Origin: Candidatus Nezhaarchaeales archaeon | Lineage (GTDB): Archaea; Thermoproteota; Methanomethylicia; Nezhaarchaeales; WYZ-LMO8 | NCBI GenBank assembly: GCA_038887515.1 | Contig: JAWAKK010000001.1 | Coordinates: 710,205 to 774,204, forward strand | DNA length: 64,000 bases | Reading direction: 5' to 3' | Shown here: positions 1 through 35,648 of the stretch, in pieces | Layout of the letters: every line of letters starts with the position of its first letter | Position numbering within the stretch: position 1 is the first letter of the stretch | Program-made: the position numbers and the translations under genes | The notes under the pieces: generated by a model | Told to the model about the DNA's origin: nothing | The model's database searches: none | Seen by the model: the letters and a program-made list of their open reading frames with translations, nothing else

Positions 1-1530
1 ATATACTGTTCCAACATAGTACGTGCAGAAAAAGGCTTTACATACGTTTTCGAAGTAGACGCTGAAGGGTATACTAGCGTTACGGTCCTTTTTTACGACA
101 ATAAAAATGGCAGTTCTTGGCTTCTAGTCCCTAAAGCTCAGAGAGAGGACATAAGCCTTATGGTGAACGAAGGTAGGCTAGTTAATGTAACGTACAGGAG
201 CCTAGTAGAGAAGGGAAAGGAAGATCCATTCTACGTAATCATGGAGTTCGAGTACGAGGCTTCTAGGATAGCCAACATAACCATAAGGTACTTTATGGAA
301 CATGGAGCGCTTATAATAGAGCCTAAGGCCGTATTTATTTCTCCTAGGGTCACTCATGAAGGACCTACGACTACTAGAGTGCTTGTCCACTTACCAAGCT
401 ACGCTACTGTTTCAAGAAGTAGAGTCTCTTCCTTTTCAGGGTTTATTAGAAATGTTGAAGTAATCGAAGGAAAAGGCTGTACCATCGTTGGCGCTATTGT
501 AGGGCCTGACGATAGGATAGTAGTGGAATACACAGTTCCCTTTAAAGGTAACATCACACATTTGACTGCCAACAACTTCACCTTCAGAACGGCTTCTAGA
601 TACCTAAGGTACGCTTACGATGTCCTTGAAACCTTAAACGATTGTTATCCGATTTATGAGAAACTCTTTGAAAACAAGCTATACAACGTAGAGGTAGAGT
701 TCTTTGTTCCATCGATAGAAGAGCTAATGTTAGGAATTGAAGGGTATGTACCCTTTTTAGGCGACAAATTGGGGGCTATTCACTTGAACCTCCTTTACAT
801 CCGAGGAGTTAAGGGTTTTATGGATATAATAGCAATGCATGAACTGGCTCACCACTTTCTATGGAGTATAGGAGTACCACCGTCAAAACTGTGGATTCAT
901 GAAGGGATTGCTGAGTACATAAGCCTAGCTTTAGGGCTACAGAGGGACTACTACGATGCTGTTGAAATTCACGAAAGCTTATTAACGACTGTTTGGAACA
1001 AAATGGACAACTACTTAGGCTTCATTCAGAAGTGGACCCCCTTTTACGTGCCATCGCAAGATCTTAGGTTATGTTATGCTGCCTCTTATTACATTTTCAA
1101 GACACTTTGTGATAGATATGGAGGTTTAGAGTACTTGAAGTCGCTCTTCAAAGCATTTAGGGACATCGATTGGAACAACGATACCCAAGTTATCGAGGCC
1201 TTCGGCATAGCTGCCGGTGATGTAAACGAAGTATTTAAGCTATTTCGCGAATGGGGATTTGAACTTGAAGAATCTTCGCAGCTAGTCCCAAGCCTCTCCA
1301 AAGTTAAGAGAAACGTTTCAGGCATGCCCACCTGGCTTAAACCATATAGGGACATTGCCCAAGCAGTTATTAATGTTGCCGAAGTGTTTCAACAGTACGA
1401 CCTGCCATACCTAAAGATGTTAGCGGTTAAGACTTCGCAAATAATATGCGAGACGAGTTGGGCACTTGCGGCCTTAAGCTTCATAATAGTTATAACGACC
1501 TTGGTCATATTAGTGAGGAGGTCGGCTTAA
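1..1530 (+). CDS. Membrane-anchored protein with HEXXH zinc-metallopeptidase motif (5' end truncated by window edge)
   Basis: Frame 1 is open from nt 1 with no stop, so the ORF starts upstream of the window. HELAHH (HEXXH) motif near nt 835-860. Hydrophobic C-terminal segment ALAALSFIIVITTLVILV suggests a TM anchor. No family recognised with confidence. Confidence 0.4.
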   Translation: MYCSNIVRAEKGFTYVFEVDAEGYTSVTVLFYDNKNGSSWLLVPKAQREDISLMVNEGRLVNVTYRSLVEKGKEDPFYVIMEFEYEASRIANITIRYFMEHGALIIEPKAVFISPRVTHEGPTTTRVLVHLPSYATVSRSRVSSFSGFIRNVEVIEGKGCTIVGAIVGPDDRIVVEYTVPFKGNITHLTANNFTFRTASRYLRYAYDVLETLNDCYPIYEKLFENKLYNVEVEFFVPSIEELMLGIEGYVPFLGDKLGAIHLNLLYIRGVKGFMDIIAMHELAHHFLWSIGVPPSKLWIHEGIAEYISLALGLQRDYYDAVEIHESLLTTVWNKMDNYLGFIQKWTPFYVPSQDLRLCYAASYYIFKTLCDRYGGLEYLKSLFKAFRDIDWNNDTQVIEAFGIAAGDVNEVFKLFREWGFELEESSQLVPSLSKVKRNVSGMPTWLKPYRDIAQAVINVAEVFQQYDLPYLKMLAVKTSQIICETSWALAALSFIIVITTLVILVRRSA

Positions 1531-1700: not shown

Positions 1701-2936
1701 ATGGATCCTAGGAAGTTCAGGTACATAAGACTTGAAGAGGCCTTGAAAAAGATAGACGAGTGCATCAGGGTTACACTACCAGCGGAAGAAGTCAGGATCT
1801 GTGAGGCATATAACAGGTTCTTAGCAGAAGATGTAGTATCGAAAATCGATCTTCCCCCGCACGACGTAGCTCACTTTGACGGCTACGCCTTGAGGAGCCG
1901 TGATGTTGCCTGTGCCTCACCGGTTAACCCTGTAAAGCTGAAGATAAAGGCCAAGATCTTCCCATCATCGGCTGAGGCGCTGAGCATAGGCGCAGGAGAG
2001 GCAGCTTATGTTGCTACTGGTGCTATCATGCCCCTTGGAGCCGACAGCGTTTTACCAATAGAGGCGGCATTGGTTAAAGAGGGTCATGTAGAGGTAAAGT
2101 ATGCAGTTAAGCCAGGAGATCACATTATAAGGGCTGGCAGCGACGTTAAGCAAGGCGACTTGATCCTAAAGAGGGGGCATAGACTTAGGGGGCAGGATAT
2201 AGCTTTCCTAGCACTCGTAGGCTACTCTCAGGTGAAAGTCTCTTCAATGCCTAAGGTATGCATAATGCCTATAGGCGATGAGCTTACCGAAGACTACGGT
2301 ACTTTGAAGCCTGGAAAAGTTCCTTGTAGTCATACTTTAATGATTAGTAGCTTCGTCCTGAGAGATGGCGGAATACCAGTTTATCAAGGCATAGTACCAG
2401 ACGACGCGAATGCTATAAGTGAAGCGATAGCTAAAGCCTCTGCTAGGTTCGACGTTATATTGACTATAAGTGGTGCGTCGAGAGGCGAGAAGGACTTAGT
2501 CTGCGAAGCTATGTCGAGGATTGAAGGGGCGAACATCGTATTTCATGGAGTAATGACAAGGCCTGGCCGACAAACTGGGTTTGCCTTAATAAGAGGGAAG
2601 CCATTAATCATGCTACCAGGTTTATCGCATTCAACCATAGTAGGTTACCAACTAATAGCTAGAAGAGCTATTTCTAGGCTTATGGGCATAGAGGTAGACG
2701 ATTTACCGTTAAAAGCGAGAATAGCCTGCAACTTAGAGCTTCCTCCTCCAAAGGGGTTTAAAAGGATAGTTTTCGTTAGGCTTGAGAACTACGGCGATTA
2801 CTATAGAGCCTGGCCGCTAAAGGGAGAGTCGGCCCTTGCAAGCATACCGGTTAAAGGTCATGGCTACGTTATCTTTAACGAAGGGTTGGAGCGTGTGAAT
2901 GAAGGTTCTATAGTAGACGTTCACTTGCTATATTGA
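1701..2936 (+). CDS. moeA: Molybdopterin molybdenumtransferase MoeA
   Basis: 411 aa. MoeA-like N-terminal and MoCF-binding core (GDHIIRAGSDVKQGD, ISGASRGEKD, PGRQTGFALI...MLPG). Confidence 0.85.
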   Translation: MDPRKFRYIRLEEALKKIDECIRVTLPAEEVRICEAYNRFLAEDVVSKIDLPPHDVAHFDGYALRSRDVACASPVNPVKLKIKAKIFPSSAEALSIGAGEAAYVATGAIMPLGADSVLPIEAALVKEGHVEVKYAVKPGDHIIRAGSDVKQGDLILKRGHRLRGQDIAFLALVGYSQVKVSSMPKVCIMPIGDELTEDYGTLKPGKVPCSHTLMISSFVLRDGGIPVYQGIVPDDANAISEAIAKASARFDVILTISGASRGEKDLVCEAMSRIEGANIVFHGVMTRPGRQTGFALIRGKPLIMLPGLSHSTIVGYQLIARRAISRLMGIEVDDLPLKARIACNLELPPPKGFKRIVFVRLENYGDYYRAWPLKGESALASIPVKGHGYVIFNEGLERVNEGSIVDVHLLY

Positions 2937-2989: not shown

Positions 2990-3739
2990 TTGAAGCTGGC
3001 CGTTTCGGGAAAAGGTGGTTGCGGTAAAAGCACTATCGTGGCGCTACTTTCCAAGGTCTTCGTAGAGATGGGCTTTAAGGTCTTGGTCGTAGACGCGGAC
3101 GAATCTAACGTAGGTTTGTTGAAGATGCTCGGCCTAGAGAACGTAAAATCATTGGTCGAAGTTTACGGCGGTCGAATAGGATTAAAAGCGGCCTTAGACA
3201 GAGGACTAGAGTTCCTACCGGACGTCAACGCCATAACTGCAGGTGAAGGCAAGCTAAGGGCTGTTAGAGTTGGCAAGATAGAGCGTGGTGGCGAGGGATG
3301 TGCATGTATATTCGGCATTCTAACTAAGGAAGTATTGAGCAAGCTGACGAGTTCAGGAGACGAGATCGTCCTGATAGACATGGAGGCTGGGGTCGAACAC
3401 TTGGGTAGAGGAATTGATCAAGTAGTTGACGCGATCCTCTTCGTAGTGGACCCAACGCTCGACTCTATAGTGCTTGCAGAGAGAGCGAACAAAATGGCTG
3501 CAGAACTAGGAGTGTCCAAGTTCATGGTCGTGCTAAATAAGATAGACTCAGAAACTGCAGAGGTGGTCCAAAGCAGATTACTAGGCTTGGGCGTTAAGAT
3601 TATTGGAAAGATTCGTTACGACCCCGAGGTCGTCAGGTCTGCGCTACTAGGCGAGACTATTAGAGCCCGTACAGCAATGGTTGACGCAGTTAATTTAGCC
3701 AAGGCAATTTTAGAGGAGTTAAGATATGGGATTAGTTGA
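2990..3739 (+). CDS. CooC/MinD-family P-loop ATPase (metal-centre maturation ATPase-like)
   Basis: Deviant Walker A GKGGCGKST at the N-terminus. ~250 aa. ParA/CooC-like architecture. TTG start. Confidence 0.65.
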   Translation: MKLAVSGKGGCGKSTIVALLSKVFVEMGFKVLVVDADESNVGLLKMLGLENVKSLVEVYGGRIGLKAALDRGLEFLPDVNAITAGEGKLRAVRVGKIERGGEGCACIFGILTKEVLSKLTSSGDEIVLIDMEAGVEHLGRGIDQVVDAILFVVDPTLDSIVLAERANKMAAELGVSKFMVVLNKIDSETAEVVQSRLLGLGVKIIGKIRYDPEVVRSALLGETIRARTAMVDAVNLAKAILEELRYGIS

Positions 3740-4508
3740 GGAACTAATTAATACCTTACTTACATTGAAGCCAGAAAATGGTGAGATTAGAGCTGAGAAG
3801 GTAATCATAGGCTTAGGATACACGTGCGTTCTAACAGAGAATGGGTACATAGGGTTATGTCAGACTTTACTGGGAGAGTTAAATGTCCGTTGTTGCAGGA
3901 TAGGAAACAAAGCCGGCACCCTTGCAGGTTCGAAGATGAGAGACCTAGTAGAGCTATCAAAATCGTGGGATTTAGGTGAAAGGATCGTGGGGGTTGCATC
4001 AATCAATGCTCTCTCAGCGCCCTACATAGCTGAAAGCAAAGGGGTTAAGCTTCTGAAGGGGAACCTAGTAAATTACATTGACCTTAGGAAGGGGGATCTA
4101 GTGGTCATGGTCGGAAACATGAGACCCTTTAAGGAGCCCATAAAGGAGAAGGGCTGCAACCTCATCGTTCTTGAGAGGAGCCCCCATCTAATGGACGATG
4201 ATACTTTTCCAGACCTAGCTGCTGAGGACGTTGTCCCTAAAGCTGACGTCCTAATAATCTCCGGTACGAGCATAGCTAACGGAACTATAGATAGACTGCT
4301 GAAATTAGCTAAGAGAGCTAGGGAGATAGCTTTGACAGGGCCTTCAGCGAGCGCTTGTCCTAAAGTACTATTCGACAACGGTATTACAGTGATAGGTTGT
4401 GTAAGGGTACTCGAGCCCTTCATGGTTGTTAAAGTTGTAAGCGAGGGGGGCGGAACATTAGCTTTAAAGCCCTACCTCGAACAAGTGGTTTTGAGGCCTA
4501 GTAGTTAA
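3726..4508 (+). CDS. DUF4213/DUF364-family protein (putative Rossmann-like heavy-metal chelation domain)
   Basis: 260 aa. Overlaps the preceding CooC-like gene by 14 nt (translational coupling). Sequence pattern recognised as DUF364-like from memory; not verified. Confidence 0.5.
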   Translation: MGLVEELINTLLTLKPENGEIRAEKVIIGLGYTCVLTENGYIGLCQTLLGELNVRCCRIGNKAGTLAGSKMRDLVELSKSWDLGERIVGVASINALSAPYIAESKGVKLLKGNLVNYIDLRKGDLVVMVGNMRPFKEPIKEKGCNLIVLERSPHLMDDDTFPDLAAEDVVPKADVLIISGTSIANGTIDRLLKLAKRAREIALTGPSASACPKVLFDNGITVIGCVRVLEPFMVVKVVSEGGGTLALKPYLEQVVLRPSS

Positions 4509-4539
4509 CTTTTTAAAGTTAAAGAGAAAGCTATCGACC

Positions 4540-5916
4540 GTGAATAGAGAAGACGTACTTTTATCACTTAAAAGCCTAGGTCTAACAGAGTACGAAAGTA
4601 GGGTTTACTTAGCCCTTATAGACCTCGGAAGGGCCAAGGCGAGAGATATAAGCGATGTCACATCTATAGCATATCCCAAAGTCTATAGTGTTCTGAACGA
4701 TTTAAAGGAGAAGGGCTTTGTTGAAGAGGAGTTGGGAAGGCCTAAATACTTTAGGCCCGTTAATCCCACTAAGGCCATTAAGAACTACGTCGAAGAAAAA
4801 GTATTCATTCTAAAGGATGTGGCAGAAAAGGTTCTAAGGGTTTTAGCTAATAGGTTTGAAGCTTCAACCAGCGAGAAGAATAGGACCCTTGTATTACAGA
4901 ATAAGCGGAGCGTCTTAGATAAGCTAAAAGATCTAATACTTAATGCTGGTAGAGAGGTTCTCATTTCGGCTCCGAGCTTTGAAGTTCTAGGGATTAAAGC
5001 CTTATTTCTTGATTTGAACGCCGCCAAGAGAAGGGGCGTCGATGTTAGGATATTAACATCTACATCAACGTCGAAAAAGGATGTAGAGAAAGTTATGGAA
5101 GTAGCTGACGTCAGAATTAAAGAGGGCCTTGAAAGTTACTACGTCATAACAGATGCCGGGTCTCTACTCATATCTGGCAAGCTTGATGATCTTAGGGCCA
5201 TACTAATTACAGATGAGCTTGGTGTAAAGCCAACGCGCGAGCATTTCAACTATACTTGGTTTGAAGCTATACCTGCTACAATATACTTGGGATTTAAGAG
5301 CGTTGAACGAGGAGTTATAGTTCTAGCTGGCGGTATGAGTAAACGCATGGGGAGAGATAAGACCTTACTCCCAGTTAAGGGTGTCCCGATGATTAGGAGG
5401 GTTACCGATGTAGCATTAAGTGTTGCAGGCGAAGTCGTAATCGTTACGGGTAGCCGAAGGATGGCGATGAACCTAAGCAGTGCCGTTGGAAAAGAAGTTA
5501 CGATAGTTGAGGACGAAGAAAGGGGTTGGGGGCCTATAATGGGCATACTAACTGGTTGTAAGAAAGCACGTGCTGAATACGTGGCTGTCGTTCCCTGCGA
5601 TGCACCTTTCTTGAATCCTAAAGTGATATTAGAGTTATTCAAAAGGGCTGAAGGACATGACGCTGCCATTCCTAGATGGCCCAATGGTTACTTAGAGCCA
5701 CTTCACTCCGTGTACCGAAGACAATCCGTATTAGAGGTGGCACAGAAACTCGTTGATAAAGGCTCTAGGTCGATACTTCACTTAATAGAGAACTTAAACG
5801 ACGTTGTCTACGTTCCAGTAGAGGAACTTAAGCTCATAGACGAAAAGCTGTTGACCTTCTTTAACGTCAACACGCCTAGGGACCTGTTGATGGCCGAGGC
5901 TATGGACATTTCATGA
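4540..5916 (+). CDS. mobA: TrmB-family HTH transcriptional regulator fused to MobA (molybdenum cofactor guanylyltransferase)
   Basis: N-terminal ~100 aa matches the TrmB wHTH (LGLTEYESRVYLALIDLGRAKARDIS). Middle ~140 aa is TrmB C-domain-like. C-terminal ~210 aa is MobA (VLAGGMSKRMGRDKTLLPVKG...VVPCDAPF). Single uninterrupted ORF. Confidence 0.75.
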   Translation: MNREDVLLSLKSLGLTEYESRVYLALIDLGRAKARDISDVTSIAYPKVYSVLNDLKEKGFVEEELGRPKYFRPVNPTKAIKNYVEEKVFILKDVAEKVLRVLANRFEASTSEKNRTLVLQNKRSVLDKLKDLILNAGREVLISAPSFEVLGIKALFLDLNAAKRRGVDVRILTSTSTSKKDVEKVMEVADVRIKEGLESYYVITDAGSLLISGKLDDLRAILITDELGVKPTREHFNYTWFEAIPATIYLGFKSVERGVIVLAGGMSKRMGRDKTLLPVKGVPMIRRVTDVALSVAGEVVIVTGSRRMAMNLSSAVGKEVTIVEDEERGWGPIMGILTGCKKARAEYVAVVPCDAPFLNPKVILELFKRAEGHDAAIPRWPNGYLEPLHSVYRRQSVLEVAQKLVDKGSRSILHLIENLNDVVYVPVEELKLIDEKLLTFFNVNTPRDLLMAEAMDIS

Positions 5917-6436
5917 AACTTTCTACTGCTCTAAGTAGTTTTTCTTCATCTCGCGGAAGTACTAAACAGTCGGCCCCCAGATATTGAAATTCGAGTAATC
6001 TTTGATTAAATGTACAGAAAGCTATTATTGGCGGCTCCGTTCCTTCGACCCTACACTTAAGGTCGTCGAGATCCTTAAAGGCTATAATCTTGCCGACATC
6101 GGTTCTCCTAGCAACAAGCCTATGGAAGCCTTCTATGACCACAACATCTATCTCTGCCATTTCAACAAGCTTTAAGACCTCTTCAAGCTTTTCAGGTTCT
6201 CCTCTAGTTCTTAATATTGTACCCGCCTCTGATGGAGAAAGATAGGCGGTTACCTTAGCCCCTGCAACCCTGTGCCTCCATGTGTCGCTACCCTCTTTAT
6301 CGATTGTAAAGCCGATGTGATGTATGTGCTTTATTGCGCCGACAGCAAAACCAAGCTTCGTAAGGTACCTTATTACTATCTCCGCAATGCTGGTTTTGCC
6401 CGATTTCTTGCTCCCAATTATGGCTATTTTTTTCAT
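5900..6436 (-). CDS. mobB: Molybdopterin-guanine dinucleotide biosynthesis adapter MobB
   Basis: 178 aa. P-loop GSKKSGKTS. MobB-like sequence (IAIIGSKKSGKTSIAE...AIKHIHH). Overlaps the 3' end of mobA convergently. Confidence 0.8.
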   Translation of the reverse strand: MKKIAIIGSKKSGKTSIAEIVIRYLTKLGFAVGAIKHIHHIGFTIDKEGSDTWRHRVAGAKVTAYLSPSEAGTILRTRGEPEKLEEVLKLVEMAEIDVVVIEGFHRLVARRTDVGKIIAFKDLDDLKCRVEGTEPPIIAFCTFNQRLLEFQYLGADCLVLPRDEEKLLRAVESFMKCP

Positions 6437-6583
6437 AAACCTCCTTACCCCAAGACTGTAAGCCTGAAAATAAATTCCTTTGGTCTCAGAACCGAGTTAC
6501 TAAGCAAGTTGCCCAAATTTACCTCGTTCATTGAGCTCTTAGGATACCTTAAAAAGCTTTGCTGAGAACACTCATAGTTAGTT

Positions 6584-7674: not shown

Positions 7675-8964
7675 ATGAGACAAGAAAGGGGAAGGATTGT
7701 GAGAATGATAAGGGAAGACTGGAAGAGAGTTTTAAAGCTGACTTCGCCCGAAGAGGCTGCTAAGAAGCTTTTGGAAGTAGTGAAAGTTAAGCCGAGGACT
7801 GAAGAGGTGAGCGTTGTTGATAGTCTCGGTAGGGTTTTGGCTGAAAACATTATAGCCAGCCAAGACGTACCACCTTATGACTGCGCTTGTTTTGAAGGCT
7901 ACGCCGTGAGGTCTAAGGATACTTCAAAGGCTTCTAGAGACTGCCCAGTTAAGTTGAAGGTGATAGGTAAAGTTTTGCCTGAAACACGTGAGCTTCCGAG
8001 GATTAAGGAAGGAGAGGCGGCATTCTTAGTTACTGGAGCACCAATCCCCCCGGGGGCAGACGCTCTCGTAAAAGTTGAGGAGACTAGGTTAGAGGATGGA
8101 TACGTATTGGTATTCAGGAAGATAGAAGAGCTTGAAAACGTTGCTGTTAAAGGTGAGGACATTAAAGCCGGGGAACCAGTACTGCGAAGCGGCCACACCA
8201 TAAGGCCAATAGACGTAGGACTGCTTATGGGGCTAGGGATATCTAAGGTTAAAGTCTACGTAAAGCCGAGGTTCGCTATACTATCTGTTGGAAAAGAACT
8301 TTACCTAAAAAGTTTAGAGACGAAGGACCCTCCACCAAACAACTACGCGTACGTCATTAAAGGTCTGATAGAGGAGCTCGGCGGATTGGCCGATGTGATT
8401 GGCATACTGCCCGATGACGTGGAGGCTGTTAAGGAGGCCATCTTGAAGGCAATTAATGAATACGACGTTTTAATAACCATGGGCAGTTGCAGTATTGGGA
8501 TTAACGATACGGTTCCTGACGCTATAAACGAACTAGGAGAACTAGGGGTAATAGTTCATGGTCTCACACTTAGCCCTGGAAAGCCTGCAGGCTTTGGGGT
8601 TTTAAAGGGAAAGCCTATCATAATGTTGCCCGGCCACATAGTCTCGGCTGTAGCGGCATTTTATTCTTTATGTTTGCCCCTAATAGCTTATCTTACAGGA
8701 AGAACCATGAATAACCTGCTACCCTACGTATACGCTGAGTTTAGGGAGGATGAAGAGCCCTGGGGAGGCTATAGGTTTCTGAGAGCTAGAGTCGAGGACT
8801 TGAACGGCAACTTTGTCGCAAAGCCCATGCACGGAGGGGCGAACGTCATGACTACGTTGCTTAAAGCAAACTATTTCGTATTGTTGCCACCTAAGACTGC
8901 TATCAAGAAGGGCGATAAGTTAAGGCTAACAGCATTAAGTCTCCTAGATTCATTGCCACAATAG
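7675..8964 (+). CDS. moeA: MoeA paralogue (second molybdopterin molybdenumtransferase)
   Basis: 429 aa. Same domain order as ORF 1701-2936 (GEDIKAGEPV, MGSCSIGIND, LSPGKPAGFGVL). Alternative start ATG 7705. Confidence 0.85.
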   Translation: MRQERGRIVRMIREDWKRVLKLTSPEEAAKKLLEVVKVKPRTEEVSVVDSLGRVLAENIIASQDVPPYDCACFEGYAVRSKDTSKASRDCPVKLKVIGKVLPETRELPRIKEGEAAFLVTGAPIPPGADALVKVEETRLEDGYVLVFRKIEELENVAVKGEDIKAGEPVLRSGHTIRPIDVGLLMGLGISKVKVYVKPRFAILSVGKELYLKSLETKDPPPNNYAYVIKGLIEELGGLADVIGILPDDVEAVKEAILKAINEYDVLITMGSCSIGINDTVPDAINELGELGVIVHGLTLSPGKPAGFGVLKGKPIIMLPGHIVSAVAAFYSLCLPLIAYLTGRTMNNLLPYVYAEFREDEEPWGGYRFLRARVEDLNGNFVAKPMHGGANVMTTLLKANYFVLLPPKTAIKKGDKLRLTALSLLDSLPQ

Positions 8965-10927: not shown

Positions 10928-11899
10928 CTATGATGCTATGGGGATTTTGAGCTTCCTTATAAGCTCTTTGTACCGGTTCCTCACAGTTACCTCAGTGACT
11001 TGAGCTGCCCTAGCTATCTCCTTTTGAGTTTTTCTTTCACCAGTCAGTAGAGACGCTATGTATATAGAGGCTGCAGCTAGGCCGGCTGGATCCTTACCTG
11101 CTGTTAAGCCGGCTTTTCTAGCTTGCTGTATTATTTCGATGGCTTTCTTCTGTAGCACGCCGCTTAGACCTAGAGAACTAGTGATTCTCGGTACGAAATC
11201 TATCGGGTCTACTATCGGTATGTTAACTTTGACGTGTCTTAGCAATAATCGATAACACCTGGCAACGTCTTTTCTACCAGCTTTAGTGCAATCAGCTATT
11301 TCGTCGAGGGTTCTAGGAATTTTAAGCGTCCTGCAGGCAGCATGTATAGAGGCTGCCATAACCGATTCTATTGAACGCCCCCTAACTAGACCTGCTCTTA
11401 CGGCTTCTCTGTAGATCTTCAACGCCTCCTCCTTAACGTTCTGAGGTAGGTTTAACCTGAAGGCTATTCGTTCAAGGTGATTCGTTGCCTGCTGAATATT
11501 CCTATCTTGTGAAGTTTGGATCCTACTTCTTATCTGCCAGCGTCTCCACCTAGAGACTTCAAAAACCTTTTGAGGACTTAGCTTGTGGCCCGTCGCATCC
11601 CTAATGGGCCATTGTATAACCGTAGGAGAAACGCCTTCAGCTAATGTAGTGGAGATCGGGGGTCCAACTCTATCCCTCTTTTCCCTCTCTTCTGGCGTAA
11701 AAGCTCTCCACTCCGGGCCTTGATCAATAAGCCTTTCATCTATGACTAAACCGCAATTCATACATGTGAGTTCTCCACGATCATAACTCCTTACTATGTT
11801 CGAACTACCACATTCTGGGCACCGATCAATACCCTTAAAATCTACATCAGGCTTCTTATCCTCCATCCCCTTTCCAACATACAACTTATTCTCGGCCAT
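10928..11899 (-). CDS. tfb: Transcription initiation factor IIB (TFB)
   Basis: N-terminal zinc ribbon CPECGS...CMNCG followed by two cyclin-like repeats. GGAGG located 8 nt upstream of the ATG. Confidence 0.9.
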
Positions 11900-12114: not shown

Positions 12115-12211
12115 GGGCCCGTGGCGCAGCCCGGATAGCGCGGCGACAACCGTTAAGGTTGCCGTAAGCCTCCTAAGCCGTTGGTCGTGGGTTCAAATCC
12201 CACCGGGCCCG
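12115..12211 (+). tRNA. Intron-containing tRNA-Arg (anticodon CCU or CCG depending on intron position)
   Basis: 7-bp acceptor stem GGGCCCG/CGGGCCC. D-arm GCGC-AGCCCGGATA-GCGC. T-arm GTGGG-TTCAAAT-CCCAC. 97 nt, about 22 nt too long between the D- and T-arms. Removing nt 34-55 of the gene (genomic 12148-12169) gives a canonical loop CUCCUAA (U33, A37, anticodon CCU). A canonical 37/38 intron would give CCG with U at position 37. No CCA encoded. Confidence 0.7.
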
Positions 12212-13916: not shown

Positions 13917-14378
13917 GAACCTAAACCTTAAGCTGGCCTCGCGCCTTCTCGTAAGTACCTGCCCCCAAGTAATGTTCGACTTTATGGTCTTCTACGTAAT
14001 ACTTGATATTTATAAAATGCTTTTTAATTTTTACCCTTAAAAGCCCTAATTTACATAAAAAGTATCGGTACTGATGTGCTTCCCCACATAAAACTTTATG
14101 TAACATGAAGCGAGGGGGCCCGCTTTTAGGTCGACAATGTAAAGGTTTGAATACCTACGTGCAATCGTTTCAACGCACGATTTTCAAGTAATGTAAAGAG
14201 CTTTGACGTGATGTTCATTTATTTGAAGTAAAGTTTATTGGGATCCTTCTAAAGGAGTTTTCCCTATGGGAGGGAGACAAAGGACGACGCTACTGGAGAT
14301 TTTTGAAGAGAAGAAGAGTGGAACCGAGAAAAAAGCTAAAAAGTAGAAAGCCGTGAAAAATAAAAATGCGAAGTGTAA

Positions 14379-14398
14379 GGGGGGGGGGGGGGGGGGGG
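14379..14398. repeat. G20 homopolymer tract
   Basis: Twenty consecutive G at 14379-14398, read directly. Lies 31 nt upstream of the ATG at 14429. Overlapped only by an implausible poly-Gly N-terminal extension of the track ORF. Confidence 0.95.
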
Positions 14399-14428
14399 TC
14401 AACCGGAATTAATGAAAGGAGTAAGGGA

Positions 14429-15415
14429 ATGTCTCAGAAGCACAACGCCGTGGCAGAGAAGCTCTCAGAATATTGTAGATCTAATAAAGCTATAACCTCT
14501 TTCCTACAAGAAATGGTCCTAAGAGGTATTAGCGAAATAAGACCTATCATATCGAGTAACGTAGAATACCCCGAACTTTCAGAATTCTTTGGCAAAGAAG
14601 CCAGTAAGATGCTTGAAGTGATGATTAGGGATGGCATACTTAAAGGCGTGGTCGTTGATAGGATATTGATGTGCCCCGAGTGCAACGCAATAACAGTAAG
14701 GACGCGCTACTTATGTCCTAGCTGTAAGAGCTTTAACGTTGAGCGTGTCTCGCTTATAGAGCACATAATTTGCGGCTTTATTGGATCAAACAGGCTATTC
14801 AAGAAAGGTGAAAGCGAAGTGTGTCCACGCTGTGGCCGTACCTTAAAGAGGGCTCAAGTGGACTGGAGGATCATAGGTATGACCTTTGAATGCTACGATT
14901 GCGGACTCATGTTTGATGAGCCCAAGATAGCCCACAAGTGTCTACCAAACGGTCACGAATTCGACCCAACGAATTCGAAGTACGAAGCCGTTTACAAGTA
15001 CGTGATCAAAGACGAGGTCGTGAAAATGGTACAAGAAGGCTTCCTGGTAACTTCTACCATTCATCAAGTCCTCGCATCGTCAGGATACGAAGTCCATGTC
15101 GACGGGGCCGTAAGAGGCCTTTCTGGCGTCGACCATAGATTTAACGTCGTAGGATCAAAGGACGGAAAGTTGACAGTAATCGAAACTAGCAACTTGCAAT
15201 CGGGCAGAGAGCAGTTAATGCAGATGGTCGCTAAGGTCATAGACACCAAACCTTCGCGAGCACTATTAGTAGTGCTTTCTCAAAGCGAAGAGGGTTTAAG
15301 AGAGCTTGAATCTCTTGCCTCATCGTTAAACATACGACTTATTGCGGTCAAAAACTTAATGGAAATAGGGGAAGCTATCCGGCGGATATTAAGTGAGGAA
15401 AGCGAAAAATCTTAA
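14429..15415 (+). CDS. Multi-zinc-ribbon protein, candidate regulator of the adjacent type IV pilus locus
   Basis: Start moved to ATG 14429 (GGAG about 10 nt upstream), dropping the poly-Gly extension. Three CxxC pairs (CPECN...CPSCK, CPRCG, CYDCG) follow an N-terminal helical region. C-terminal ~130 aa of unknown fold. No confident family assignment. Confidence 0.5.
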   Translation: MSQKHNAVAEKLSEYCRSNKAITSFLQEMVLRGISEIRPIISSNVEYPELSEFFGKEASKMLEVMIRDGILKGVVVDRILMCPECNAITVRTRYLCPSCKSFNVERVSLIEHIICGFIGSNRLFKKGESEVCPRCGRTLKRAQVDWRIIGMTFECYDCGLMFDEPKIAHKCLPNGHEFDPTNSKYEAVYKYVIKDEVVKMVQEGFLVTSTIHQVLASSGYEVHVDGAVRGLSGVDHRFNVVGSKDGKLTVIETSNLQSGREQLMQMVAKVIDTKPSRALLVVLSQSEEGLRELESLASSLNIRLIAVKNLMEIGEAIRRILSEESEKS

Positions 15416-15419
15416 GAAC

Positions 15420-16280
15420 CTACAGTAGCTGCGTAAAGACTAAGATCAGTACCGCCAACATCAATGCCGAGTGCCTCAACCCAGTTAACATAGACCCCTT
15501 AGATATCTTTCCTATTGCAAGCCCAGCAGCTATGGCCTCTATTACCCCGCAATAGAAAAATATGGCTTTGTAGAAATCGATGCCCCTAAATCCCTTAACT
15601 ATCTCTCCAAAACCCTCCGTAAGCGTTAGGGGGGTTACTAGCTGAGTCATCAGTATGTAGACCGTTAACAGGTACACCACAAAGCTTACGTACATGATCC
15701 AGGTGTAGGACTTGAGCTCTGTCTCCTTCTCAGTTTCGTACGATTCCAAAGCTGAGTGTAATGTGAGGAAGGATTGAAGAATGTTTAGGGCTTTAGCTCC
15801 ACTCCTCATAACCTCTACGAGTAGTATAGATACCTTATCCATGAGCGGGGTCCTAGCCATCTTAGCTATGTCAATTATCGAAATTTCAGGGTCGAACCCT
15901 AACATCATCTTGGCGACTACTCTATTCAACTCCTTTGAAAGTGGACCGTAACGGTTTTTAGCGCACTCTTTAAGGGCAATCGTCAATGGAACGCCAGTCC
16001 TCACGTAATCTACTAAGTCCCTGATGAATTGGGAGACGCCTTTCTCAATCCCTCTCTTCCATCTATGCTCAAGGTCTTCAACCACTCCAACTATAAGGCA
16101 CAAGACCAAGATCCCTACACAGAATATAGAGTTGACCAGTTGGCTAGTAGGTATGAATATTGGAGGGGCGGGAGTGTAAAGCTTCAGGTAGAATGGCAAG
16201 TAGAATATCGCCACGGCAGATGCAATGGCCACAAAGTAAGTAGCCGCCTTCTGGCGGGGAGAGAAGAAGCGCCCGTTCAT
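15420..16280 (-). CDS. Type II secretion system F-domain membrane protein (TadC/FlaJ-like, second half)
   Basis: Polytopic membrane protein with one T2SSF-like domain. Its ATG lies one codon after an in-frame TAA that ends the upstream T2SSF gene (TAA-GCC-ATG). Confidence 0.6.
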   Translation of the reverse strand: MNGRFFSPRQKAATYFVAIASAVAIFYLPFYLKLYTPAPPIFIPTSQLVNSIFCVGILVLCLIVGVVEDLEHRWKRGIEKGVSQFIRDLVDYVRTGVPLTIALKECAKNRYGPLSKELNRVVAKMMLGFDPEISIIDIAKMARTPLMDKVSILLVEVMRSGAKALNILQSFLTLHSALESYETEKETELKSYTWIMYVSFVVYLLTVYILMTQLVTPLTLTEGFGEIVKGFRGIDFYKAIFFYCGVIEAIAAGLAIGKISKGSMLTGLRHSALMLAVLILVFTQLL

Positions 16281-16283
16281 GGC

Positions 16284-17174
16284 TTACACCGACGAAAGCG
16301 CCTTGTCCATCAATACCAACACTATGGCCGCGAGTACCGGCATCAATACGAATGCTGTAAGCATAGTTACTGAGACCGGGTCAACGCCGAAGAGTTGTTG
16401 GCCGAGCATGGCCACTATGATCAGTATGGTTATGATAATTATTGGACCTACTATAACCAAGGCTACGTACATCTCGGATAGATATCCCATAGCCGTCAGG
16501 ACCTTGCGTAGAGTTGATCTCCTGAACTCTACGAGACTTTTCGCGTAGTCCATTAAGTACCCCGATACGTCTCCGCTCGAGCCTATGACGGTTGAGAGTC
16601 CTTCCAATAGTGTCTTCAAATGAATCGAGGGGGACCTATTGGCTGCTTCGTATAGGGCTTTTATGGGATCTACGTTGAATATAGCCATCTGTCTAAGTAT
16701 AAAGCAGAACGTGTTTTTAATGGCTTTCTCGCTCTCGATCTCCACGGTCCTCCTGATCAAGGTCTCGATAGTTGTTCCAGCTGAAGCCAGCGCAGCCATG
16801 TACTCCACAGTATATGGGAGGGCTCTGTCTATTCTAAAAGCCAAGTTCTTGGACCTTACATAAGGGTAGTATGCGCCTACCGTAAAAGTGACCGAGAAGC
16901 CTAGGATAGCCCATACAACTACGAGCACCAGCACATAGAGCATGGGTAGGCCCAGCACTAGGGCGTTGACTATAAAGGAAACAATGGCCGAGGCTACGCA
17001 GACCATTATGCTCATGAAGACGACTGCTGAGGCGTAAGCCGGAAATGGAATGCCCATCTGAGCCTTAAGGTACCTCTCCCTTACGAAGGAGATGAATGGA
17101 GAATTTGAGCTAGGCTTAAAGAGCCTGTAACTGAATGAGGATATGGCTTCGAGGAGACCGTTTCCCTTCGACAT
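16284..17174 (-). CDS. Type II secretion system F-domain membrane protein (TadB/FlaJ-like, first half)
   Basis: 296 aa. Cytoplasmic T2SSF-like domain (LPYTVEYMAALASAGTTIETLIRR) flanked by TM segments. Follows the ATPase gene after a 6-nt gap. Confidence 0.6.
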   Translation of the reverse strand: MSKGNGLLEAISSFSYRLFKPSSNSPFISFVRERYLKAQMGIPFPAYASAVVFMSIMVCVASAIVSFIVNALVLGLPMLYVLVLVVVWAILGFSVTFTVGAYYPYVRSKNLAFRIDRALPYTVEYMAALASAGTTIETLIRRTVEIESEKAIKNTFCFILRQMAIFNVDPIKALYEAANRSPSIHLKTLLEGLSTVIGSSGDVSGYLMDYAKSLVEFRRSTLRKVLTAMGYLSEMYVALVIVGPIIIITILIIVAMLGQQLFGVDPVSVTMLTAFVLMPVLAAIVLVLMDKALSSV

Positions 17175-17182
17175 GGCCTCAC

Positions 17183-18703
17183 CTAAGGGGTAGCTACCAA
17201 CTTTAGCAACTCACTCCTAGCCCTCTCGTAGGTTTCTCGAGGCTTTAAGTAGTAGCTTCTAATAACCTTGGCTACGTCGTCGTGCCTCGATAGGTCCTTC
17301 TTCAACATCCATTCAAGCACAACCTTCCTGTTCTCTAGTTCACTCGTAACGTTATCAAAACCTAGCCTCTTGACTATGATGCTGCCATCTGCTATCAACC
17401 TAGTGAAGGAATCGGTAAGCGGATCCCAACGATATATGGGATTTATCATGATTTCCCCGCTTCTAGGGTCTATCCCCGTGACCTCGTTTACCTCTATAAC
17501 CCTTCTAACCGTAACCCCTCTCACTTTTCTTCTAGCAACTAGTATTATGGTTTCAATCATTGGTATAAGTTCTCTAGGAACATTCATAGGCTTAGACTCG
17601 AGCCTCCTTATGGCCGCCTCTATGTTTTCAGCGTGTATGGTGCATAGACCTCCGTGGCCTGTAGCCACGGCTTGAAAGAGAGCGTAGGCTTCTTCGCCCC
17701 TGACTTCGCCGACGATTATGTAGTCGGGCCTTTGCCTTAAAGCGGACTTTAATAGGTCGAACGCCGATATCTCTGGGGCTCCATCGGTCGTGCTGGGCCT
17801 AGTAACTAAAGGGACCCAGTTCTCATGTGGGAGCATTAGCTCCCTCGTTTCCTCTATAGTTATTACCTTGGCTTCAGGCCTTATCAGGGCGGCTATAGCG
17901 TTTAGGAGAGTAGTCTTGCCGGACGCAGTTGCACCGCAAATAAGCATAGACCTCATTTGCTCGACCATAATCCATAGGTAAGCTGCTACTTCGCTCGACA
18001 AAGTACCTAACTTTATTAGGTCTATTATAGTAAACTTTTCAGGCCTATACTTCCTAATGGTAAAGGTCGACCCCCTCTTAGAGACCACGTCTAGGGTTAG
18101 GTGGACTCGATGTCCTTCAGGTAGCACGCCATCGATGACCGGCCTTGCAATGGAAACCTGCTGCTTAGCCTTAAACGACAGGGTCATGACGAAGGAGTTT
18201 AGTTCCTCCTCACTTTCAAAGGATACGTTCGTTGGAAGCTCCTCGTACTTTACGTGCCAAACGTATATTGGGATCCCGACGCCAGCGCAGCTTATATCTT
18301 CGATGTTGGGATCCCTAACTATGCCGTCTATCTTTCCGTAGCCCAGCAGGTCCCTAACTATGTAATAAAGTATCTTATCTAGGGCTTCTGAGGCCACCTT
18401 GAAGCCGTACTTCTTAATAACTTTCTTAGTTGCTTGGACTATGAAGGACCTCGCCTTTTCCGGGTCTTCTACGTCCTCTACGTCTACGTCAACCGACTCC
18501 TTGATGAACTCCTTGACCCTACGTACTACCTCCACCTCGTCCTGTAGAAGCGTTGGCTCTACGACTTCGTACCTAAGCTTCCCGACGGGATCCATTACTA
18601 TAGCTATGTGGCAGAAGGGGGGATTCACGGCGTAGAAGTCTCTTAAACGAGCTAGCTCAACTTGTTCTAAGCCCTTAGAGTCTCCAGCCCGCTTAATACT
18701 CAT
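17183..18703 (-). CDS. Type IV pilus/archaellum-family secretion ATPase (FlaI/CpaF/VirB11 superfamily)
   Basis: Walker A GATASGKTT, Asp/His boxes and typical length of 506 aa. Confidence 0.85.
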   Translation of the reverse strand: MSIKRAGDSKGLEQVELARLRDFYAVNPPFCHIAIVMDPVGKLRYEVVEPTLLQDEVEVVRRVKEFIKESVDVDVEDVEDPEKARSFIVQATKKVIKKYGFKVASEALDKILYYIVRDLLGYGKIDGIVRDPNIEDISCAGVGIPIYVWHVKYEELPTNVSFESEEELNSFVMTLSFKAKQQVSIARPVIDGVLPEGHRVHLTLDVVSKRGSTFTIRKYRPEKFTIIDLIKLGTLSSEVAAYLWIMVEQMRSMLICGATASGKTTLLNAIAALIRPEAKVITIEETRELMLPHENWVPLVTRPSTTDGAPEISAFDLLKSALRQRPDYIIVGEVRGEEAYALFQAVATGHGGLCTIHAENIEAAIRRLESKPMNVPRELIPMIETIILVARRKVRGVTVRRVIEVNEVTGIDPRSGEIMINPIYRWDPLTDSFTRLIADGSIIVKRLGFDNVTSELENRKVVLEWMLKKDLSRHDDVAKVIRSYYLKPRETYERARSELLKLVATP

Positions 18704-18794
18704 CCTAAAGCGCCTAGAAAAATCTAGAAGGCGAAGCTCAAAACTTTTCCGGAGCGAGTAAAGCCTAGCAGACGAGTTCTTTTAACGATAGATT

Positions 18795-18808
18795 TATTTA
18801 AATGGTAT
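18795..18808 (+). promoter_or_regulatory. Putative BRE/TATA element for the pilin gene
   Basis: TTTATTTAAAT about 30-40 nt upstream of ATG 18837, in the divergent intergenic region between the ATPase operon and the pilin genes. Confidence 0.3.
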
Positions 18809-18836
18809 CGCAAATTATTATCGTTCGGTGAACACC

Positions 18837-19265
18837 ATGAAGAAGGTTAAAGGGGTCTCCCCCATAGTAGCAGTACTATTACTCATAGTCATAGCTGTAG
18901 CGGCAGCTGCAATGACGTATGGCTTCGTAATGGGCTTCATAGGTGGAGCCGCAACAACTACAACAACGACGCAAGCAATGATAAGGGTAGAAGCAGTAGA
19001 TGCCACTACTGGTACTGATGCCACAGTATACGTTAGGAACATAGGCTCCATCCCTGTAACTGTCGACTTCATATATGTGTACCACGCTAATGGAACCCTC
19101 ATGAGTACACAACGGCTTTCGACTTCGATCACGATTCCTCCGGGTAATGTAGGTATAGTTTATGTCGATGGCCTAGATTTAAGTGGAGGGGTTACGTACT
19201 ACGTCAAGGTAACGACCAAGGAAGGAGCTATCGCGACATCGGAGCCCTTTAAAGTTAAAAGCTAG
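18837..19265 (+). CDS. Archaeal type IV pilin (class III signal peptide, DUF361-like N-terminus) with one beta-domain
   Basis: N-terminus MKKVKGVSPIVAVLLLIVIAVAAA matches the K-G-(V/I)SP-hydrophobic class III pattern. C-terminal ~90-aa domain is homologous to the repeats of the next gene. Start set to ATG 18837 rather than the track's GTG 18828. Confidence 0.7.
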   Translation: MKKVKGVSPIVAVLLLIVIAVAAAAMTYGFVMGFIGGAATTTTTTQAMIRVEAVDATTGTDATVYVRNIGSIPVTVDFIYVYHANGTLMSTQRLSTSITIPPGNVGIVYVDGLDLSGGVTYYVKVTTKEGAIATSEPFKVKS

Positions 19266-19411
19266 CCCGTAGTAGTGTGAGTAATACTATACGCAGTTAC
19301 TATAGTGTTTCGGGTCTAGCTTTTTTAACATACAATCAATTTTTCCTCCTTGTTATGTTTACCACAATAGTTATACCTAAAGCTGTTATAAAGAAGGATT
19401 TAGCGACGCCT

Positions 19412-20707
19412 ATGAGTGGAGGCAAGGGGATCTCTCCGATAGCTTCTACGCTATTGCTAATAATGGTTGTAGTTGCTGCTACGGTAACCACGTACAACTT
19501 AGTTATTGGACTTGTAGGAGTAACCGCTACATCGCCTCTACGATCTGTAATAAGGGTGGACGAAGTTAGCATCTCTGGTAGCGAGCTTACTGTTTACGTC
19601 AGGAACCTTGGTCCGGCTCCAATGACGCTAGATTCGGTATACGTGTACTCTGTTGACGGGGTACTAGTCGGGCGCGTTCATATTAACCCCAAAACGATAG
19701 ATGCGGGAGAGGTTGAGGCTATTACGGGCATACCAATTGGTTACTTGAAGGAGGGGGGTGTCTACTACATCAAGGTAGCTACAATGGAGGGAGCTATCGC
19801 GTCTTCCCAAGCATTTAAAGTCGGATTAGCTAAATCAGCTAAAGCTATAATAGTGATAGAAAGATTGGAGACCGAGCCAGCTACATTGAACACATTCAAT
19901 GCTACACTGTACGTCAAGAATGCGGGCGACGTCCCAGTGACGATAGACGAAGTACGCGTATACTACTCGTTATCGAAGAAGACTTTACTGGAAAGCATTG
20001 ACATTGCAAAGAGATTAAATCCTGGAGAGACTGTGAGGATCGTTATTGACAAAATACCATACGACATAGAGCGGCAGAGGCCTAGCTACGAGATTGAAGT
20101 AACAACTATAGAAGGAGTTATAGCAACTACGAAGGCTATGGTACTAGCAAGAGAAATGTTGGTAGAAACAGGATTAAGTGCGGAAGGATTCAACATAGAC
20201 GCCTCCATATACGTTATAAATTATGGCGCTGCCCCAGCAATAATAGATAAAGTACAAGTATACATCGATGGAGAGTTGGACAGTATCGTAAACCTTGGGA
20301 ACTTGTCGCTAGGTGTGACGAGTTCAACAACCATTAATTTCAACGTTACTATAGATCCAAGCAAGTCCTACTCCTTCAAGATTGTAGGAAGTGATGAGGC
20401 TTTAACGTCGTGGCGAGCAATAGTGGTAGCTGAAGCGAGTGCAACACCGATAAACGATCGCAGTTACAGCGTTACTGTTTACGTTAGGAACGTCGGCTCC
20501 ACCCCCGTAACGATTTACGGCTTGTACATACAATCTGAACGAGGGGACTTAATAGTGCCCCTGATAGATGTAGGGGAGGTGATAAAGCCAAAAGAGATTA
20601 AAGAGATAATTAATCCAATTACCCTAACGAATGGGACATACTACATATTCGTGTTTACTGATGAGCCTTGGTTTTTAGAAGCGAAGACGAGGCTAGAATT
20701 GGTATGA
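19412..20707 (+). CDS. Modular type IV pilin/adhesin with class III signal peptide and four tandem beta-domain repeats
   Basis: Internal ATG 19412 gives MSGGKGISPIASTLLLIMVVVAA, a class III signal. Four ~90-aa repeats share an xxYVRNxGxxPVTID-like core (TVYVRNLGPAPMTLD, TLYVKNAGDVPVTID, SIYVINYGAAPAIID, TVYVRNVGSTPVTIY). The 45-aa extension in the track ORF is probably not translated. Confidence 0.65.
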   Translation: MSGGKGISPIASTLLLIMVVVAATVTTYNLVIGLVGVTATSPLRSVIRVDEVSISGSELTVYVRNLGPAPMTLDSVYVYSVDGVLVGRVHINPKTIDAGEVEAITGIPIGYLKEGGVYYIKVATMEGAIASSQAFKVGLAKSAKAIIVIERLETEPATLNTFNATLYVKNAGDVPVTIDEVRVYYSLSKKTLLESIDIAKRLNPGETVRIVIDKIPYDIERQRPSYEIEVTTIEGVIATTKAMVLAREMLVETGLSAEGFNIDASIYVINYGAAPAIIDKVQVYIDGELDSIVNLGNLSLGVTSSTTINFNVTIDPSKSYSFKIVGSDEALTSWRAIVVAEASATPINDRSYSVTVYVRNVGSTPVTIYGLYIQSERGDLIVPLIDVGEVIKPKEIKEIINPITLTNGTYYIFVFTDEPWFLEAKTRLELV

Positions 20708-20826
20708 TTAAGATAGCGGTCGAGGATAGAACGTTGAAGGGAGAAACTATTATTACCATAAACTCTCGTCTGAAGGCTTAATATGGTATCTGGGGTCTCG
20801 AGCGATATCCACCCGATTCCTTGCCC

Positions 20827-21417
20827 TTATTTAACTCTCTCGCGTTGCTTCTTCTTCCACTTGTAGTTGTGGGTCCCTCTTAGGCCCCTCGACTTCCTCA
20901 GGCCCCTCATCTTCTTTCCGGCTGAAGTTAATCCTCTGAACGCCCTTCCCCTGTTGGCTGGACTGCAAATCCAGTTTATGTCTGGGTCGTTTTGTACTGC
21001 TGGGTGGTGGGGGTCGACCATTATCACTTCGTACCACTTGTAGCGCCCATCCTCGCCGACGTAGTAGCTGTTGAGGACTTCTAAGTTCGGGAACTTCCTA
21101 GCCGCCCTCTCCTCAGCTATTAGCCTTAAGCTCTTCCAGGTTGCGTAGCCGTAGACCCCCATCCTCTTGGGTCTCCTACCAGAGTCCGGTCTCGGCTTCC
21201 TCTGTCCTCCCTTCCTTACCCTGACCCTTACAACTACGAATCCCTGCTTGGCTTTGTAGCCTAGAGCTCTAGCCCTGTTTAGCCTAGTGGGCTTCTCGAC
21301 TCTAACTACTGTTGGCTCTCTCCTCCATTCTATGAGGCGTTGCCTCATTATCTCCTTTATTTCTCCGCGATAAGGCTTCTTCCAGAGCTCTGCTATGTAG
21401 TGGTACACGGACTTCAA
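20827..21417 (-). CDS. rpl15e: 50S ribosomal protein L15e
   Basis: Strong L15e similarity ([21 protein letters not shown]). TTG start bounded by an upstream stop. Confidence 0.9.
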
Positions 21418-27586: not shown

Positions 27587-27723
27587 AGCTTGTCACCTTC
27601 GCAACGCCTTTCTCTGGTTTTGTAGAAATGTATTTAACATTTACTCGTTGAATTACTTGGAGATTAAGCTTCAAATATAATTATAATGCTAGGTGCAATG
27701 CATTGGTAGACGTGGTTTCGTTG

Positions 27724-29644: not shown

Positions 29645-29727
29645 TTGAGGTTACCCGCTTACAGCTACGGTTTACGGTTTCGCAGGGAAAAATGTTTCTT
29701 AACTTAATTTATGGATATGTTGTGGAG

Positions 29728-31610: not shown

Positions 31611-31613
31611 TCC

Positions 31614-33557: not shown

Positions 33558-33561
33558 GATT

Positions 33562-34743: not shown

Positions 34744-34745
34744 AT

Positions 34746-35647: not shown

Positions 35648-35648
35648 A

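Follow-up and report, generated by a model that had tools for sequence, protein, structure and literature searches.

A conserved fusion of a TrmB-type module with MobA in the molybdenum cofactor gene cluster of Nezhaarchaeota, a candidate enzyme-regulator

Whether a single archaeal polypeptide could both complete the molybdenum cofactor (Moco) and control genes for its synthesis is the question raised by one gene in a 64,000-nucleotide (nt) stretch of a Candidatus Nezhaarchaeales genome (contig JAWAKK010000001.1; the whole stretch is hereafter the window). The gene lies within a Moco gene cluster, and its product of 458 amino acids (aa) carries a TrmB-type winged-helix module followed by a complete MobA (molybdenum cofactor guanylyltransferase) domain (Table 1). 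An initial annotation made from the sequence alone had described it as a single open reading frame (ORF) with this domain order; it had also named the alternative that two adjacent genes were fused in the assembly through a lost stop codon. [quoted passage not shown]

A genuine and conserved fusion found in a single lineage

The fusion gene is one uninterrupted ORF, as first described, and its product is 100% identical to P0001, a protein from an NCBI metagenome-assembled genome (MAG) labelled 'Candidatus Nezhaarchaeales'; orthologues have ATG at the aligned start position, versus the GTG of the window gene. The search for orthologous fusions that had been proposed at the outset, carried out over 5.8 billion proteins, returned at least 18 full-length orthologues of 456-461 aa with 62-100% identity, drawn from independent NCBI, JGI, ENA and Logan assemblies, for which different assemblers had been used. 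Across an alignment of 14 orthologues, the junction is free of indels; the (near-)invariant stretches KPTREHFNYxWFEAxPA and RGVIVLAGGxSxRMGxDK flank an 11-aa linker that is variable in sequence yet constant in length. Comparison of the orthologues gave no conserved internal ATG, GTG or TTG for a separate MobA across aa 233-270, and an internal start as the source of a free MobA was rejected on this ground. Matches shorter than full length are cut copies: P0019 lacks the N-terminus, P0020 starts inside the phospholipase D (PLD)-like domain, P0022, labelled partial, runs into a contig end with '...RGVIILAGG' as its last residues, and contig ends divide the WYZ-LMO8 copy between loci L021 and L023. 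The gene order moeA, (cooC-like, DUF364), fusion, mobB, moaA, moeA is common to 12 orthologous loci.

An artefact, in which two adjacent genes were joined by a sequencing error, a faulty assembly or the recent loss of a stop codon, had been raised only as an a priori possibility; it is rejected because the same ORF of 456-461 aa and the same indel-free junction with invariant flanking residues recur in independent assemblies (at least 18 protein clusters from four assembly sources) and the synteny is conserved. Shorter matches are explained by contig ends or by the gene call, and no unfused pair of TrmB-like and mobA genes occurs in any related locus; the probability of an artefact is regarded as negligible.

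The fusion occurs in a single archaeal class, a small group from hot springs. When the family profile was run with HMMER against all of 1.84 billion cluster representatives (clustered at 50% identity), it gave exactly one full-length fusion cluster, P0007, all named members of which are Nezhaarchaeota; the remaining top-150 matches are free MobAs of ~200 aa or free TrmB-like proteins of ~255 aa. Among GTDB species-representative genomes, the fusion is found only in six or seven Nezhaarchaeota-type MAGs. No paper joining TrmB with MobA or describing a helix-turn-helix (HTH)-MobA fusion was found in the searchable literature, and database names are generic ('NTP transferase domain-containing protein' or 'MobA'), in agreement with the initial annotation, to which no characterisation of the architecture was known. 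Since one member of the class was recently brought into culture, transcript mapping and protein biochemistry are feasible; the main text of the cultivation paper does not mention the fusion gene (PMC12700198).

The nearest unfused MobAs belong to Bathyarchaeia, Methanotrichaceae and Methanosarcinales, with 36-45% identity. No TrmB-like gene lies within ±6 kb of unfused mobA at 35 loci from Bathyarchaeia, Methanotrichaceae and other lineages, and therefore no precursor arrangement, with a TrmB-like gene adjoining an unfused mobA, is visible there. The free-standing ~255-aa TrmB-like proteins cover profile positions 3-250 and end at the last helix of the N-terminal module; since these relatives terminate in '...EHFxYxW' and free-standing MobAs start with 'M(R)RGVIVLAGG', the fusion is a clean end-to-start join. 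The Moco context of the closest free relatives is inconsistent, as P0126 adjoins an FmdE-domain gene and P0181 lies among sugar-nucleotide genes. P0126 (254 aa), the closest free relative, is divergent from an FmdE-domain/zf-dskA_traR gene (L013, 1480-3037) which itself adjoins an ABC transporter ATPase gene; this neighbourhood is a possible Mo/W link for the TrmB subfamily, in a single case.

The TrmB-type and MobA halves

The fusion begins with a winged helix-turn-helix (wHTH) of the TrmB type; PF01978 (TrmB) matches aa 10-76 with 79.5 bits against a cut-off of 25.6 (E 1.6e-22), covering profile positions 1-67 of 68. At the other end PF12804 (NTP_transf_3) matches aa 259-414 with 127.3 bits against a cut-off of 27 (E 7.8e-37). 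The Pfam check suggested in the initial annotation therefore places both domains above their cut-offs, and its assignments of an N-terminal wHTH and of a complete C-terminal MobA, with every catalytic motif kept, are upheld. The recognition helix has the sequence SIAYPKVY(S/D/N)VL and the wing GRPxxFRP; Tyr49, invariant in the 14 orthologues, corresponds to Tyr50 of TrmB. DNA recognition by TrmB relies on Tyr50 and less on Asp51, and in most characterised members the Tyr of the recognition helix precedes Asp (PMC4158304, Table 1 therein); in the fusion, one subclade has S/N after Tyr49 and the other has D. The winged helix is expected, from these residues, to bind DNA.

The wHTH is followed by a stretch (aa 76-109) predicted by AF2 to form a single helix, which aligns to TrmB and TrmBL2; in TrmB the coiled-coil helix is amphipathic and mediates dimerisation (PMC4158304). 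Beyond it, PF11495 (Regulator_TrmB) matches aa 118-214 with 28.8 bits against a cut-off of 22.2, only over profile positions 4-97 of 233, and a PLDc_2 match at the same stretch (E 1.4e-4) is below its own cut-off. In this PLD-like subdomain the HKD-like motif is degenerate (RxK...GS), and the conserved helix at its end reads KPTREHFNYxWFEA; an active PLD was rejected, as the motif read from the sequence has Arg for His and Ser for Asp. The effector-binding domain (EBD) of TrmB is made up of two subdomains, the second of which supplies six of the seven sugar contacts, and TrmBL2 is without this second subdomain (PMC4158304). The alignment of the fusion to TrmB (3QPH) stops at chain residue 161, and the N-terminal 250 aa match an entire protein of TrmBL2 type (hidden Markov model E 1e-16; Foldseek E 3e-11 over ~260 columns with 5BPD). 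MobA starts directly after the conserved helix that matches the sugar-recognition (E-alpha-3-like) helix of TrmB; it takes the place of the second, sugar-binding subdomain, which the fusion does not have. The 'TrmB C-domain-like region' of the initial annotation accordingly stands for the first effector subdomain (aa ~113-245) and falls for the second. Taken as a whole, the N-terminal module probably dimerises and binds DNA, as judged by its likeness to these families.

In the MobA half, NCBIfam MobA models cover aa 257-453. The best match in the PDB is MobA of Archaeoglobus fulgidus (3NGW; sequence E 4e-23, TM-score 0.72 normalised to the target), and E. coli MobA structures give TM-scores of 0.70-0.72 to the domain. 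The signatures LAGG, R, GxDK, D, GP..G, PCDxP and NxNT are invariant across the fusion orthologues; they align with those of archaeal MobAs and of E. coli MobA (LAGGxxxRMGxDK, D71, GPxxG, PCDxP with D101, NxNT with N180/N182), for which the E. coli sequence used, at 194 aa, equals the chain length of 1FR9. The roles of these residues are established by mutagenesis. Enzymes of the Fwd and FdhA types are, from established biochemistry, W/Mo-bis-MGD enzymes. Some Nezhaarchaeota encode FwdABCD, FwdBD-Hdr and FdhA (PMC12700198), and MobA activity is therefore required. A search of the window and of each ~21-kb orthologous locus gave no second MobA, and no Nezhaarchaeota-labelled free-standing MobA is present among the homologues found. 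The MobA half thus appears catalytically competent from its conserved motifs.

Purifying selection acts on both halves. Among the modules of the fusion MobA is conserved best (78% identity), and the recognition helix and wing have the same mean identity (Table 1), so that the DNA-binding surface is constrained as strongly as the enzyme; the coiled-coil helix is the least conserved structured part.

A candidate operator and the possible roles of the fusion

An 18-bp inverted repeat, TTAACTTT-TT-AAAGTTAA, is the candidate operator/promoter of the fusion gene. It overlaps both the stop codon of the DUF364 gene and a TATA-like element, TTTTTAAA (4510-4517, -30 to -23), and the spacing of this element implies a separate promoter for the fusion gene and a leaderless mRNA, predicted to start at about 4540. 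Within the window no second copy of the repeat occurs with up to 3 mismatches allowed; its 16-bp core is exact in L003, L004 and L005, has 1 mismatch in L006 and has a spacer 1 nt longer in L002, and the 17 nt that follow it are not conserved. An unbiased dyad search of five promoter classes (moeA1, fusion, mobB, moaA, moeA2) at ten non-redundant loci gave the repeat as the only dyad common to several loci, 4 versus a maximum of 2 in shuffles. The residue following Tyr49 is S/N where the repeat is present and D in the subclade without it, a pattern that rests on a single phylogenetic split; the divergent L001 has S and no clear copy of the repeat. The mobB-moaA intergenic region (6437-6583), singled out in the initial annotation as a target for DNA binding, is not supported as such, as it holds no conserved dyad across the 10 orthologous loci.

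The preferred reading is that the fusion is a bifunctional enzyme-regulator which, by analogy with BirA and NadR, would combine a working MobA with a TrmB-type DNA-binding module; its chances are judged to be evenly balanced. The MobA half would make (bis-)molybdopterin or tungstopterin guanine dinucleotide for formylmethanofuran and formate dehydrogenases, the TrmBL2-type half (winged helix, coiled coil, PLD-like subdomain) would dimerise and bind DNA, and the ligand state of MobA (GTP, Mo/W-molybdopterin (MPT) or MGD) would modulate DNA binding by the winged helix; the protein might in this way repress or tune its own promoter by cofactor flux, and possibly other Moco or molybdoenzyme genes. 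Ligand-modulated DNA binding is considered the most likely mechanism because MobA stands at the place of the ligand-binding subdomain of TrmB. Autoregulation through the repeat with ligand-gated DNA binding is hypothetical, as is the coupling of regulation to catalysis. A more specific proposal, tentative and somewhat doubtful as a whole, is that MobA replaced the sugar-sensing subdomain, that the active enzyme is itself the sensor whose occupancy by GTP, W/Mo-MPT or MGD gates DNA binding, and that the S/N-versus-D switch by Tyr49 reflects co-evolution with the operator.

Several results weigh against an enzyme-regulator. Conserved dyads are absent from the moeA1, mobB, moaA and moeA2 promoters of the 10 loci, the half-sites are not enriched in the intergenic DNA or other promoters of the window, nor in the orthologous loci, no regulon is visible, and degenerate copies of the repeat in ~250 kb of orthologous loci amount to the site at the gene's own promoter only. 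The subclade with 459-aa proteins lacks the repeat and has other promoter elements, though its recognition helix is nearly identical; furthermore, the repeat overlaps an AT-rich, quasi-palindromic region of TATA box and B recognition element (BRE), so that conservation of the promoter alone could account for it. The closest structural relative of the N-terminal module, TrmBL2, is a largely non-specific chromatin protein. NCBIfam equivalog cut-offs are missed by the MobA half (NF001457, 125.5 versus 164 bits; TIGR02665, 92.8 versus 151.85 bits); these models are mainly bacterial, and identity to the closest free archaeal MobAs is 36-45%. With a pLDDT of 68 and a pTM of 0.51 overall, the AF2 model is of mediocre quality, though confident in the PLD-like subdomain (pLDDT 84-91), and contacts between domains and their geometry are therefore not readable from it.

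Some of these points lead to the main rival, which is plausible: that the N-terminal module is an oligomerisation scaffold, or a non-specific DNA or nucleoid tether for MobA, rather than a gene-specific regulator. As a scaffold it could, for instance, pair two MobA domains and so favour a bis-pterin intermediate, or it could gather the enzyme together with MobB and MoeA. The plausibility comes from two sides, as MobA must join two Mo-MPT by a step for which the way a monomer manages is unresolved (PMC9103625), and TrmBL2, which matches the fusion best in both architecture and structure, binds DNA non-specifically and forms higher oligomers (PMC4158304); that no regulon-like motif is seen at other Moco promoters, and that the candidate operator is not family-wide, is in keeping with it. 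A pure scaffold is nonetheless disfavoured because the recognition helix, which together with the wing and its DNA-contacting Tyr forms the best-conserved part of the module, is strongly conserved compared with the coiled coil, the least conserved. Free-standing MobA also suffices in all other lineages, and one subclade conserves an inverted repeat at the gene's own promoter; a scaffold or tether is on balance considered rather unlikely.

A different division of labour is suggested by the TrmB family itself, the members of which normally end in a non-catalytic ligand-sensing domain (PMC9426492): MobA sits at the position of that domain and could be a catalytically silent sensor recruited by a TrmB regulator, in which case the true MobA would be the product of another gene of the genome. 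The missed equivalog cut-offs would fit, and the extent of the paralogue search, which spans the window and the orthologous loci, leaves room for it and counts against an enzyme-regulator as well. A silent MobA is unlikely because the active-site residues are invariant, the catalytic and substrate-binding signatures being kept in orthologues down to 62% identity within the most conserved module. The gene also occupies the position of mobA adjoining mobB in the Moco cluster, the window and loci hold no other MobA, and no free one labelled Nezhaarchaeota is among the homologues; the silent sensor is accordingly given a low probability, well below that of the scaffold. If instead the enzyme is the sensor, the fusion would be the first archaeal transcription factor known to respond to Moco or the W cofactor, and no earlier regulator would be known to act at the MGD branch point; if the N-terminal module is a scaffold, it would bear on how MobA assembles two pterins into the bis-cofactor.

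Genomic setting and comparison with known systems

The neighbours named in the initial annotation (moeA, cooC-like, DUF364, mobB, moaA) are matched by Pfam (Table 1). The mobB gene is convergent with the fusion gene and overlaps its 3' end by 17 nt (5900-5916); this tail-to-tail overlap is kept in every orthologous locus, at 14-29 nt. Downstream, moaA and moeA2 are conserved in all orthologous loci. Upstream, L001 and L003-L007 keep the order moeA1-ATPase-DUF364; L002 lacks DUF364, and L008 and L010-L012, the 459-aa subclade, have neither the ATPase nor DUF364. The pair of ATPase and DUF4213/DUF364 protein ('putative heavy-metal chelation') may serve Mo/W cofactor synthesis as an accessory module for metal insertion.

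Table 1. Features of the fusion gene and its Moco cluster, with the conservation of the fusion's modules in the orthologue alignment
Feature	Position in window	Strand	Residues	Basis or remark	Mean pairwise identity	Invariant columns
moeA1 (MoeA)	1701-2936	+		Pfam
CooC-like (CbiA/MinD-type) P-loop ATPase	2990-3739	+		Pfam
DUF4213+DUF364 gene	3726-4508	+		Pfam
Inverted repeat, candidate operator/promoter of the fusion gene	4505-4522	strand-neutral		-35 to -18 from start codon
TrmB-MobA fusion gene	4540-5916	+	458 aa	one uninterrupted ORF, GTG start
TrmB-type winged helix-turn-helix	4567-4767	+	10-76	PF01978
Recognition helix and wing			38-76		78%	49%
Long helix where TrmB has its coiled-coil dimerisation helix	4768-4875	+	77-112	AF2, alignments	50%	14%
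First subdomain of the TrmB effector-binding domain, PLD-like fold	4876-5274	+	113-245	PF11495, AF2, Foldseek
PLD-like subdomain, part scored for conservation			113-225		65%	20%
Short variable linker, regulator module to MobA	5275-5307	+	246-256 (11 aa)		44%	9% (1/11)
Complete MobA (molybdenum cofactor guanylyltransferase) domain	5308-5913	+	257-458	PF12804	78%	44%
mobB	5900-6436	-		PF03205, 86 bits; TIGR00176, 89 bits, cut-off 76
moaA	6584-7567	+		Pfam
moeA2 (second MoeA)	7675-8964	+		Pfam

Outside this core the loci differ. In several of L001 and L003-L007 (about 15200-21100) the Moco cluster is followed by Fer4_11, CCG/HdrD-like and FAD_binding_2 proteins and, after the FAD_binding_2 flavoprotein, by a convergent ~730-aa molybdopterin oxidoreductase (PF04879/PF00384/PF01568) that is likely an MGD client enzyme; the window is without this set and has SurE directly after moeA2. 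A Peptidase_MA-like ORF of 456 aa (160-1530, + strand), which has a hydrophobic tail at its C-terminus, lies upstream of moeA1 in the window, and most orthologous loci instead carry PAPS_reduct, an unknown gene of ~530 aa and a divergent Thiamine_BP gene; the BRE/TATA element of moeA1, CGTAAnTAATATAT, is kept despite the differing upstream genes of the window and L001-L012. No other molybdoenzyme or Mo/W transporter was found in the rest of the window, and no Moco riboswitch or other known RNA was found in it.

Elsewhere, the window contains a TFB gene (10928-11899), by which the organism is recognisable as an archaeon. An archaeal type IV pilus/secretion locus (14366-20707) has genes for a T2SSE ATPase, two T2SSF proteins, a pilin, a CARDB protein and a protein with a TackOD1 domain, and a prepilin peptidase (39762-40574; Peptidase_A24 + Arc_PepC_II) is encoded separately. 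A complex-I-like (Nuo/Fpo/Mrp-type) membrane oxidoreductase operon (24008-35990, - strand) encodes three Proton_antipo_M proteins, the 4L, NADHdh, 49-kDa, 30-kDa and 20-kDa subunits and a ferredoxin; it bears on the 'remodelled membrane redox modules' that PMC12700198 discusses in the class. At 12115-12211 (+ strand) ARAGORN reports a tRNA-like element of 97 nt, whose 4-nt anticodon (cgtt) is anomalous and which Rfam does not list at its gathering threshold, and an 89-nt tRNA-Ala(TGC) at 47785-47873 (+ strand) may contain an intron. In L011, a 68-aa ORF near the ribosomal L15e gene (20606-20812) matches Cas12f1-like_TNB (TnpB-type) and is probably a transposon-derived fragment.

Both domains of the fusion come from well-known families, and the joining of enzyme and repressor is an established concept; what the fusion illustrates is how the TrmB family can swap a sensor subdomain for an enzyme. 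TrmBL2 of the Thermococcales (5BPD, 5BOX, 5BQT) shares with it the wHTH with its conserved Tyr, the coiled coil and the presence of the first EBD subdomain only; however, TrmBL2 is ~23% identical, is abundant in the cell as a chromatin protein, and ends where the fusion runs on into a full enzyme. The sugar-sensing TrmB and TrmBL1 (3QPH) share the wHTH, the coiled coil and the first EBD subdomain, and also have a C-terminal module at the same topological position, after the E-alpha-3-like helix; in them this module is the second EBD subdomain, a beta-barrel with the sugar contacts, whereas in the fusion it is MobA, and the fusion has no sugar-metabolism context. MobA of E. coli (1FR9/1E5K) and of A. 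fulgidus (3NGW) shares the fold, the signature motifs and the association with mobB, moaA and moeA. Work on the mobAB locus of E. coli and R. capsulatus did not reveal any regulatory influence on the availability of bis-MGD (PMC9103625). Known MobAs are free, or fused to pathway proteins such as MobB, FdhD or MoaC (NCBIfam names; P0025, P0027-P0032); unlike the fusion, none is known to be joined to a DNA-binding domain.

Dedicated regulators of Mo/W cofactor or molybdoenzyme genes are ModE and the Moco riboswitch, which are bacterial, and Tfx of Methanothermobacter. None of the three contains a pathway enzyme, in contrast to the fusion, which for its part has no Mop/TOBE domain of the ModE kind according to Pfam, and whose locus has no such riboswitch. 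The functional parallel proposed is that of the bacterial BirA and NadR, which act for biotin and NAD; in each, an N-terminal (w)HTH is combined with a nucleotidyl-transferring enzyme of cofactor synthesis or attachment, and the ligand state controls the repression of pathway genes. The fusion, as its sequence is read here, would likewise unite a DNA-binding domain and a catalytically competent cofactor enzyme in one polypeptide. Its DNA-binding and enzyme families are unrelated to those of BirA and NadR, and the analogy is one of function only; BirA and NadR have operators at pathway promoters, whereas the candidate operator of the fusion lies at its own promoter only.

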